In this document: piece after piece, positions 14,889-17,844 of the stretch | Position numbering within the stretch: position 1 is the stretch's first letter | Layout: every line of letters begins with the position of its first letter | Assembly: GCA_963797525.1 (NCBI GenBank) | Contig: CAWCPT010000010.1 | Location: 41,056 to 105,055, forward strand | From: an uncultured Actinomycetota bacterium | GTDB lineage: Bacteria; Actinomycetota; Actinomycetes; Propionibacteriales; Nocardioidaceae | DNA: 64,000 bases | Reading direction: 5' to 3' | Position numbers and translations under genes: made by a program | The notes under the pieces: generated by a model | The model's database searches: none | What the model was told of the DNA's origin: nothing | The model's input: the letters and a program-made list of their open reading frames with translations, nothing else

Positions 14889-16055
14889 TCACTGCATTGC
14901 GGGAGGAGTACGCCGGGTCGGCGTACTCCTCCCGCTGCATCACGAGCTCCAGCCGCTCGACGGCGAGGCGGACGTCGTCGAGGGTGTTGTAGAGCGGGGC
15001 GAAGCCGAAGCGGGCGATGTCGGGGTCGCGGAAGTCACCGATCACGTCGCGGGCGATCAGCGCCTGGACCACGCCGTACGCCGCGTCGTGGCGCAGCGAG
15101 ACCTGGCTGCCGCGCCGCGCGTGCTCGCGGGGAGTGACGATGTCGAAGACCCCGGGCAGCCGCTCGTCGACGAGCGCGATGAACAGGTCGGTCAGCTCCA
15201 GTGACCGGGAACGCAACGAGTCGAGCGAGACGCCGTCGAAGGCCTCGAGCGAGGCCTCGAGCGCCGAGAGGGCGAGCACCGGCGGTGTGCCGGACGCGAA
15301 GCTGCCGACGCCCTCCTTCGGCACGTAGTCGCGCGCCATCGCGAACGGGGCCGCGTGTCCCATCCACCCCGTGATCGGCTGGCGCGCGGCGGCCTGGTGC
15401 TGCGGCGCGACCCACAGGAAGGCCGGCGAGCCCGGTCCGCCGTTGAGGTACTTGTAGGTGCAGCCCACGGCCAGGTCCGCCCCCGCACCGGTGAGGTCGA
15501 CCGGGCACCGCGCCGGTCGAGTGGCACAGGTCCCACTGCACGAGCGCTCCGCGCGCCTGCGCGGCGGCCGTGACAGCCGGCCATGTCGAACATCGCCCCG
15601 GTCCGGAAGTCGACGTGGGTCAGGGCGAGCAGCGCGACGTCGTCGTCCACCGCTGCGACCGGGTCGGCGGGGTCGCACCAGCGCAGCTCGAGGCCCATCA
15701 GGTCCGCGACACCGGCCGCGACGTACCCGTCGGTGGGGAAGGTGCTGGGCTCGACGACCAGCACCCGGCGATCGGGACGCAGCCGCGCCGCGGCGACGAA
15801 GGTCTTGAACAGGCTCACGCTGGTGCTGTCGCCGAGGTGCACGTCGTCGGCGCGGGCTCCGATCAGCGGGGCGATCCGGGCCGCGACCCGGTGGCCCAGC
15901 TCCATCCAGTGCGCGTCGTTCCAGGAGCGGATCAGGCCCTCGCCCCACTCCCGGCGTACGACGTCGGCAACGCGGTCGGCGACACCGGCAGGCAGCGCGC
16001 CGAGGGAGTTGCCGTCGAGGTAGACCAGCCCGGGTGGCAGCTCGAAGCCGCTCAT
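14884..16055 (-). CDS. kynU: Kynureninase (frameshifts near 15500-15580)
   Basis: YLDGNSLG, DSTSVSLFK, FPTDGY, WDLCHSTGA, GCTYKYLNGGPG, RGSQVS, GDFR, RFGFAPLYN. Confidence 0.92.
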
Positions 16056-17844
16056 GGCAGCTCGAAGAGCCGGTCGCGGGCCCGGTTGATCAGCGACTGG
16101 AAGGTGTCCTCGTCCACGTCGTTGCGCCCGGCGGGGGTGAAGTTCACCTGGGCGACGTAGCGGCCGACCCGGGCGACGCCCATCCAGAAGCCGACCTTCG
16201 AGCTTGTCGCCGATCTCGCTGTCCAGGCGCCACAGGGCGTACTCCGAGCCGCGGTAGCCGCGCGACTGGACGACCGGGCTGCTCACCGTGGCGCCCAGGT
16301 CCTTCTTCTCGCAGGCGGCCATCGCCGCCGAGACCCGGCTGACGAAGGCGTGCGCCTGGGCCGGGGTGCGGAAGGCGCCGATAGGTCTCGGTGATGCCGA
16401 AGCGCCGGGGCAGTCGTGCCTGGGGGATCAGGAACGTCCGGGTCACCGCACGCGGCGCTCCGCTGCGGACGAAGTTGGCCCGGTCGCAGGTGGTGGCGGC
16501 CACGTTGGGCCTCGCCGGGACGGGCTTGGTCCCCACCCAGGGCCGGTTGACCGCACCGACGACCGGCAGGTCGGCCGCAGCGAGCGTCCCGGGCGTCTCC
16601 CCGGACGGCGGCGGGAGCACGGGGGAGGCGGTGACGGTCGTCGGGCAGGTTCCCGCGGCGTCGGTGTGGCACACGTTGCGGACCGCGGAGGTGAGCGCCT
16701 TGACGGTGCGGTTGATCGCCACCGGGCTGCCGCCGAGCGTCTCGGAGACGGTCGAGACGGTGAGCGACCCGGTGCGGGCGACGCCGACGACGTAGGTGCG
16801 GCGCACCTTGTTCGGGATGCGCAGCTTGAGGACCATCGCCTGGTCGGCGAGGCCCTGGAGCCGGTAGGAGCCGAGCAGCTGGAGCCGGGCCTGGCTGCAG
16901 CCGGCGAACCACCCCAGCGTCGTCCGGTACGCCGCCTGCGCGGCCTCGTCGGACCGGGAGATCTCGACCGTCTCGAGGTAGGTCCGTCGAGGTGTGCCGG
17001 TGGCGGCGTACTTGCGCACGAGCGTGCCACGGCCCCGTGGGTCGGCGAACCGGGTGGCCTGGCAGACCGTGTTGATCCCGGTGCCCCGGGTGTTGTCCGA
17101 GGTGCCGAGCAGGCGCCAGACCGACTGGGGGGCGAGGTCCTGCACCTGCGCCGGACTCACCAGCATCGACCCCTTCACCGGCCGGCTCACGGCCTGGGGC
17201 TGTGCACCTGCCGAGTCGTTCGCACCCTCCGTCACCACGAACAGGCCGCCCGCCACGACCAGGGCGAGCAGGGCGGCGGTGCCGGTGACGAGGTGCAGCC
17301 GGTGGCGCCTCCGGCCGTTGCGCGCGATCACAGCAGGAGCAGGCAGGGCGGTCGCCTCCGCGATCGGGGCCAGCGACTCCAGGGCACGCTGCAGGTCTGC
17401 CGGCTCCGTGCCGGTGCCCTCGCAGAACGACGTCGTCGCCCGGGCCAGGCGCTCCTCGACCCGGCTCGGTCGTTCACCGAGCTCGCGGCCGATCTCGGCG
17501 CTGGACAGGGCCGCCAGGTGGGTCAGCAGGAGCACCTTGCGCTGCTGGTCGGGCAGTCGGTGCAGGGTGTCGAGGACGCCTTTCTGCTCGGGCGTGATGC
17601 CCTTCTCGCGGTGCCAGAGCCGGGCCACGTGCCGACGCTGGGCCATCGCCCAGGCGCGCTGGCGGACCCATTCCTCGGGGTCGGGCAACCGGCCGACCTT
17701 GCGCCAGTGGTGGCGGGCGGCGACGAACGCCTCGCGCACCGCCTGGCGACCGGCCGACAGGTCTCCGGTCAGCGCGTAGGCCTGCAGCACCAGCCGGCGG
17801 CGCGTGGACAGGTAGAAGTCGTCGAAGTCTTCGGGATTGGGCAT
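16052..17844 (-). CDS. ECF sigma-like domain + TM helix + two extracellular PknH-like repeats (frameshifts near 16380 and 16200)
   Basis: Region 2-like FDDFYLSTRRRLVLQAYALTGD...EAF...W...PEEWVR; region 4-like LHRLPDQQRKVLLLTHL..LSSAEIGRELG; TM LVTGTAALLALVVAGGLFVV; TGA overlaps the kynU ATG. Confidence 0.75.

Follow-up and report, generated by a model that had tools for sequence, protein, structure and literature searches.

A degenerate sigma fold fused to an anti-sigma-like segment and two predicted PknH-fold repeats in Nocardioidaceae: a possible sigma mimic tethered to the membrane

Can a protein that joins a sigma-factor fold, a membrane anchor and outside repeats in a single chain still act as a sigma factor, and what else could such a chain be for? 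The question is raised by one gene in a 64,000-nucleotide stretch of DNA from an uncultured Actinomycetota bacterium (assembly GCA_963797525.1, contig CAWCPT010000010.1; the whole stretch is called “the window” below). Its product carries, from the N-terminus, a domain resembling a sigma factor of the extracytoplasmic function (ECF) type, one transmembrane (TM) helix and two repeats resembling the extracellular domain of PknH. The original prediction offered two readings of this arrangement: a sensor-to-sigma device from which an active sigma is freed, or a pseudo-sigma that serves as a decoy. In this report, we confirm that the gene is real and conserved among soil actinobacteria, and we find the decoy to be the better of the two readings, one already proposed in print for a protein encoded beside ECF51s9. 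The sigma-like fold, the TM helix, the repeats and the single chain all stand. The release of an active sigma is disfavoured, and a stretch just before the TM helix that resembles an anti-sigma factor had been overlooked. This last feature makes the gene a sigma and anti-sigma fusion.

A sigma domain without sigma motifs

The proposed resemblance of the N-terminus to degenerate sigma regions 2 and 4 is borne out by a fold match, by a Pfam match above cutoff and by the loss of motifs. The sigma4-like half matches Sigma70_r4_2 at 34.1 bits (cutoff 25.7), and the same domain scores above cutoff in four of the seven fused proteins scanned. Sigma70_r2 matches neither this protein nor any of those seven. 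For the sigma2-like half, the best NCBIfam match is TIGR02983 (SigE family) at 61.9 bits; the scores span 61.9-64.8 bits against a cutoff of 141.55, and the curated threshold for the SigE family and ECF51 is thus not reached. The predicted layout, sigma2 and sigma4 without sigma3, is that of an ECF. On the cytoplasmic side, the fused copies share no conserved cysteine and no Cys/His zinc motif, and no receiver domain appeared in the Pfam or fold-search results.

Structural comparisons were made with a single model of the protein of a relative, G016, which is 72% identical (predicted local distance difference test, pLDDT, 83; predicted template modelling score, pTM, 0.57). The sigma fold match spans residues 9-153. 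The N-terminal domain aligns with RpoE-NepR (Z 13.7, root-mean-square deviation (rmsd) 2.8) and with PhyR-NepR (4qic; Z 10.9, rmsd 3.4); with polymerase-bound sigmas the rmsd is about 27. A control model, likewise single, was made of an intact ECF found at this locus, using an alignment about as deep; it fits the closed structures more poorly (rmsd 8.7, 8.1 and 6.4). The predicted packing of sigma2 and sigma4 in the fused protein is closed, like that of PhyR and of sigmas with a bound anti-sigma, and the anti-sigma-like segment is modelled adjoining the sigma domain, at pLDDT 81-93.

The Arg patch, the single TM helix (peak Kyte-Doolittle value 2.29) and the repeat motifs quoted by the original prediction are all present, and exactly one hydrophobic segment is found in 66 of 75 fused copies. 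The two repeats are homologous to each other, as had been claimed (HHalign probability 83%, E 9e-6), and both are predicted to adopt the PknH fold. In the model, repeat 1 aligns with the PknH extracellular domain (4esq; Z 15.1, rmsd 3.1, 165 residues aligned) and repeat 2 with the PsbP-like structure 3lyd (Z 10.3, rmsd 3.5, 138 aligned); the match of the model to TiME (7cu8) has a Z of 13.9. Pfam matches to the PknH-like domain fall mostly below cutoff (PknH_C is above it in one of the seven proteins scanned), and the assignment comes from the fold together with conserved cysteines. Six cysteines are invariant in all 75 copies. Two lie in repeat 2, which has the single pair expected of each repeat; the other four lie in or just after repeat 1.

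Comparison of these 75 non-redundant copies with 16 intact ECFs reveals what the sigma domain has lost. In region 2.2, the first acidic residue of the core-binding motif is retained by one fused copy, the second by 14 and the Gln by one; no fused copy has all three together, and all 16 intact ECFs do. The GTxK of the recognition helix, which reads the -35 element, is present in 16/16 intact ECFs and in 0/75 fused copies, and this helix is the least conserved region of the domain (25% mean identity). The span from W47 to R102 has a median of 52 residues, about 12 short of the 64 in intact ECFs. In net charge, the domain is no different from intact ECFs. According to passages of PMC8999054, the DAED motif binds beta-prime and EcfP without it is inactive. 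Parts of PMC6648896 report that deleting or replacing the linker abolished transcription in the ECFs tested.

The promoter tells a similar story. The pattern GCAACC...GCGT, which agrees with the ECF51 promoter as given in parts of PMC7826278, lies upstream of 11/16 intact ECFs and of 0/72 fused genes. In the spaced form GCAACC-N16-GCGTA, it precedes 11 of the 12 downstream intact ECF51-type pairs examined, including that of L035. The four matches to the pattern in the genome studied here (G000) are about what a hand estimate gives by chance at its GC content, and they were not used as evidence. Because the core-binding and -35 motifs are lost in 75/75 copies, the sigma2-sigma4 span is short and an ECF51-type promoter is missing, we consider it likely that the product is not a working sigma; the same three findings disfavour the sensor-to-sigma device.

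Nor is the domain decaying: it is under purifying selection. The ratio of non-synonymous to synonymous change (dN/dS) was obtained by simple counting in high-GC DNA over 17 independent pairs, and its values are valid for ranking only. At 0.17, sigma2 ranks lowest of six domains, followed by the sigma4 body (0.30), the anti-sigma-like segment (0.34), the repeats (0.41 and 0.34) and the recognition helix (0.41). Mean identity is 45-52% in the sigma2 half versus 30% in the anti-sigma-like segment. Between this gene and that of the close relative G015, sigma2 shows 0 non-synonymous and 12 synonymous changes.

Origin, range and possible function

The anti-sigma-like segment and the TM helix together match the N-termini of 13 ECF51-type partner proteins (HHalign probability 96.6%, E 5e-10). 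We conclude that the gene very likely arose by fusion of an ECF51-type sigma with its anti-sigma-like partner. Such a fusion explains why this one locus shows a series of states: an intact pair, a pair that is duplicated and half degenerate, the fused pseudo-sigma, one version to which a helix-turn-helix (HTH) domain has been added, and one that lacks the sigma.

The fused form is characteristic of one family, f1, which we call Nocardioidaceae because its protein matches bear the names Marmoricola, Nocardioides and Propionibacteriales; our other taxon labels (Streptomyces-like for f23, Jiangella-like for a genus of f13) are guesses. Among 150 genomes of f1, all at least 95% complete and including G057, 127 match the gene at E 1e-30, which makes it near-core and mostly single copy. 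Among the matches listed from 301 genomes of the class, every full-length one belongs to f1, and a cluster-atlas search matched only the family's own sigma-named clusters. In five other families (f5, f13, f17, f18 and f32), an intact ECF overlaps a separate one-TM partner at the same position beside a gene for a DUF6350 protein, and at L108 and L114 (f13) this separate partner has both repeats. In trees of 79 and of 76 sigma domains, the second leaving out three long rows, the degenerate domains form long branches; one origin versus several is neither shown nor rejected.

Two further arrangements deserve mention. In five genomes of the Jiangella-like genus (L109-L113; e.g. L110:5264-9218, minus strand), we observed a half-degenerate, unfused sigma and its partner beside the DUF6350 gene, then an intact sigma and partner, then kynureninase. 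This tandem is possibly a snapshot of the degeneration that preceded fusion. The gene is matched in 25/25 genomes of the Streptomyces-like f23. Its six fetched loci (L116-L121; e.g. L117:6567-7625, minus strand) encode, between sucD and the DUF6350 gene, a fused protein whose degenerate sigma2/sigma4 is followed by a partner-like segment, a single TM helix and a short tail, with no repeats. An N-terminal HTH_3 domain occurs in 4/4 f23 proteins scanned, and judged by its domains this version looks like a membrane-tethered one-component regulator. SCO4809 is sucD and SCO4813 is purN, flanking SCO4810-SCO4812, on which a literature search, mostly without subscription papers, found no publication.

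What might a dead sigma fold be kept for? Our tentative proposal is that the protein is a sigma mimic tethered to the membrane, which caps itself until an envelope cue releases it to titrate a SigE-clade anti-sigma. In the resting state, its own anti-sigma-like segment would hold the mimic. The outside repeats would read the envelope cue and free it, through a shape change or cleavage; the freed mimic would then sequester the anti-sigma that restrains a true SigE-clade ECF, either ECF51 (in genomes that have it) or another one, and this ECF would be switched on. The footing of the proposal is the architecture, the motif loss, the purifying selection, the juxtamembrane homology to ECF51-type partners and the fixed locus. 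A wider version is doubtful: in this one-component, self-capped, tethered mimic, the dead sigma fold would have become a signalling module independent of the ancestral ECF, retained next to the perM-like gene throughout Nocardioidaceae and, in Streptomyces-like genomes, joined by an HTH. If it is true, the protein is PhyR's counterpart for sensing at the membrane, its partner yet to be discovered, and the question could be put in a model streptomycete.

Several results weigh against the titration proposal, most of them by way of ECF51. We searched 80 genomes for an intact ECF51-type protein, scoring at most 45 candidates in each. Of the 74 that belong to f1, we set aside three that lack the sigma domain and one that has no fused-gene match, which leaves 70 carriers. 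No ECF51-type match at E 1e-22 was found in 39 of these, G000 (86% complete) included, and only 17 have a close one (at least 58% identity). In seven pairs without any ECF51 match, selection on sigma2 is not relaxed (dN/dS 0.12 vs 0.27-0.29 in the repeats); four more divergent pairs with an ECF pair at the locus show about the same ratio (0.32 vs 0.69-0.73). The sigma domain is thus kept without ECF51, so ECF51 cannot be the general target. At the locus itself, among 60 loci chosen across genera from the matching family genomes, an intact ECF51-type pair (the ECF and its partner gene) lies within a few genes downstream in 11 and directly next in three; in G000 the fused gene does not stand at -1 of an ECF51 gene. 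G000 does have two SigE-like sigma and TM-partner pairs (contigs C7 and C8), and the ECF51 partner profile does not match those partners at E 0.01. Placement of the degenerate domains inside ECF51 is neither shown nor rejected (approximately unbiased test, p-AU 0.435), and the anti-sigma role of ECF51 partners is itself a prediction in the part of the literature that treats them. Finally, some versions lack the sigma half and keep the TM helix and both repeats (L032 of G017, L052 of G170, L021-L027); the six loci read from f2 and f3 are of this kind, and in f2 a long Pro/Asp-rich stretch stands in place of the sigma. According to parts of PMC7826278, anti-sigma domains are common to ECF38, 39, 51 and 222, so a decoy aimed at a sister group is conceivable.

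In a different reading, rather unlikely in our view, the protein serves the envelope or cell division as an accessory: its TM helix and repeats would act together with the DUF6350 protein or with the divisome, and the sigma fold would have a new use in the cytoplasm, docking a partner other than an anti-sigma. The DUF6350 gene is the divergent neighbour in 60/60 loci; it is called PerM-like here, its homology to mycobacterial PerM being presumed. The near-core distribution (127/150, mostly single copy), retention under selection without ECF51, persistence of the TM-plus-repeats part without the sigma domain (f2, f3, G017 and G170) and the lack of an ECF51-type promoter in 72/72 upstream regions would all suit such a role, and PerM acts through FtsB in mycobacteria, according to part of the published work. 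However, other families have intact ECF pairs at this very place next to DUF6350, so inheritance may account for the adjacency, and no shared motif links the DUF6350 protein to the pseudo-sigma protein.

Could one half of the fusion instead act directly? That the anti-sigma-like segment inhibits a true SigE-clade ECF in trans, with the pseudo-sigma as a built-in cap until a signal comes, is improbable, although the segment is homologous to ECF51-type partner N-termini, is modelled beside the sigma domain (pLDDT 81-93) and is, with the TM helix, common to most versions at the locus. Its constraint is weaker (dN/dS 0.34, identity 30%) than that of the sigma2 half (0.17, 45-52%), and in the f2 versions a long low-complexity stretch stands in its place. 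Still less probable is a true but atypical sigma, freed by intramembrane proteolysis (cf. IutY, ECF52), perhaps switched by phosphorylation as ECF43 is, and reading the -10 element only. The complete sigma2/sigma4 fold in the model and the strong selection on sigma2 speak for it, and sigma-anti-sigma fusions of such logic exist, as passages in section 3.5.3 of PMC8999054 describe. Against it stand the loss of both the core-binding and -35 motifs in 75/75 copies, a recognition helix that is the least conserved stretch (25% identity), the short linker and the lack of an ECF51-type self-promoter (0/72). A Ser or Thr takes the second acidic position in 28/75 copies and would be the phosphorylation site; it is missing in 47/75, this gene included, and an ECF43-like switch was rejected because the residue is not conserved.

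Reading frame and neighbourhood of the gene

The gene (Table 1) is read from an ATG at 17844 to a stop at 16052-16054. Its 596 codons are divided over three frames (488, 59 and 49). The two frameshifts noticed earlier are both one-base insertions, near 16381 and 16203. GC content at third codon positions is 0.93, 1.0 and 0.98 in the three pieces, vs 0.58 in the out-of-frame tail. The close relative G015 lacks both insertions, and in 16 of 19 same-genus loci the gene is a single intact open reading frame of about 590-635 aa, as the expectation of one polypeptide in high-quality relatives had it. Since relatives lack them, the insertions are probably assembly errors, judged from contigs of related soil strains (runs X1, X2 and X5) rather than from the source reads.

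Table 1. Positions in the window of the fused gene, its parts and its neighbours
Feature	Position	Strand	Remarks
Whole gene, from the pseudo-sigma through the anti-sigma-like segment and TM helix to the two predicted PknH-fold repeats	16052..17844	minus	~596 aa
Sigma2-like half	17608..17826	minus	residues 7-79; most constrained domain
Sigma2.2 acidic (DAED-type) core-binding motif position, degenerate	17725..17754	minus	motif comparison of copies
Sigma4-like half	17425..17586	minus	residues 87-140; recognition helix 17434-17469 without GTxK
Anti-sigma-like segment ending in Arg patch	17299..17403	minus	residues 148-182
Predicted single TM helix	17233..17298	minus	residues 183-204; hydropathy
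Predicted PknH-fold repeat 1	16642..17181	minus	residues 222-401; four invariant Cys
Predicted PknH/PsbP-fold repeat 2	16055..16593	minus	two invariant Cys; contains both frameshifts
One-base insertion 1	16380..16382		probable assembly error; missing in G015 and contigs of runs X1, X2
One-base insertion 2	16202..16205		probable assembly error; missing in G015 and contigs of runs X1, X2, X5
Divergent spacer	17845..17910		66 bp, as originally described; no ECF51-type promoter
Divergent DUF6350 gene	17911..19185	plus	Pfam DUF6350, 234.6 bits
Kynureninase gene	14884..16055	minus	Pfam KYNU_C; start overlaps pseudo-sigma gene stop by four bases

That the frameshifts are real and the gene a fresh pseudogene in this organism is very improbable. 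In its favour, the source reads against which the insertions could be checked were not found (the best candidate run contains 0.24 of the words). However, the adjoining kynureninase gene is broken by two further one-base insertions (near 15503 and 15574), codon bias is intact across all three pieces, selection on the gene is not relaxed relative to G015, and G015 has different breaks of the same kind. Elsewhere in the window (9800-11680), a gene that by eye we label peptidase-like shows an apparent frame change relative to G016, a further sign of one-base errors in the assembly.

The context of sucC, sucD, purN and purH is present in the window. Among the 60 loci, sucD lies within reach downstream in 57, and kynureninase follows the gene in 26, as it does in f13. 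Inspection of the divergent spacer by eye shows, in this genus, a TAnnnT-like box a few bases before the gene start. In many relatives, again by eye, a CACGCC/CACGCG box recurs some 20-30 bases from a -10-like box of the DUF6350 gene and is possibly its -35 region. Between sucD and kynureninase (window 14780-14890), gtgacggtttcactaggtccctagtgaaaccgtcac forms a perfect inverted repeat, a terminator or small repeat element, and a ctagtgaaac-like stretch recurs about 60 bases beyond it.

Comparison with known systems

The closest described relative is the protein encoded at -1 from ECF51s9. The part of the supplement of Casas-Pastor et al. (2021; PMC7826278) that describes it gives a TM protein with sigma4 (80%), sigma2 (20%) and a PknH-like domain (20%), as a possible anti-anti-sigma. 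The present family fits this description, an identification made from the description rather than from member accessions. The context named there (CoA-binding, ATP-grasp, formyltransferase and AICARFT) corresponds to sucD, sucC, purN and purH here, and the pseudo-sigma gene is directly upstream of an intact ECF in 3/60 loci. Unlike that protein, which those passages tie to ECF51s9, most carriers here have no close ECF51-like gene, and the present protein has its own anti-sigma-like segment and two repeats and is near-core in its family. The architecture and the decoy idea are thus already in the 2021 supplement, and automatic annotation already labels these proteins sigma-like. What is new is that 39/70 carriers have no close ECF51-like gene and that selection persists in them. 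Literature searches, mostly without subscription papers, found no experimental study of this family.

The nearest two-gene systems are the ECF51/SigE (TIGR02983) sigmas with their one-TM partners. They share with the present protein the best family match, the locus, and a homologous partner N-terminus and PknH-like domain. In these pairs, however, sigma and partner are separate genes, the motifs are intact and the GCAACC promoter is autoregulatory; the present gene is single, degenerate and without such a promoter. The repeats are predicted to share the Mog1p/PsbP-like fold of the PknH extracellular domain and TiME, and have invariant cysteines, but identity is about 10%, there is no kinase domain and the repeats come as a tandem pair.

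ECF48, the ECF52 protein SCO4117, ECF53 and IutY (ECF243) likewise place a sigma, a juxtamembrane anti-sigma-like part, a TM helix and an outside domain in one chain, as described in parts of the published work; fused active sigmas are reviewed in passages of PMC8999054. In those same accounts, however, the extensions of ECF48, 52 and 53 carry a zinc finger, which is not conserved here, and SCO4117 and IutY act as sigmas, whereas the sigma motifs of the present protein are lost. In the ECF15 EcfG-NepR-PhyR switch, PhyR is a closed sigma2/sigma4 mimic, and our protein has a weak NCBIfam PhyR match (E 1e-5, far below cutoff). A phosphorylated receiver domain gates PhyR, which is a soluble protein; the present protein is membrane-bound, with outside repeats and no receiver domain, derived from the SigE clade and without ECF15 context.

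Soluble PhyR is an established sigma mimic, and active sigmas are known among fused sigma/anti-sigma proteins. If our proposal is correct, a fused pair with a dead but strongly conserved sigma half is a third arrangement beyond these two, and through its Streptomyces-like version the question can be tested in a host that is easy to work with.

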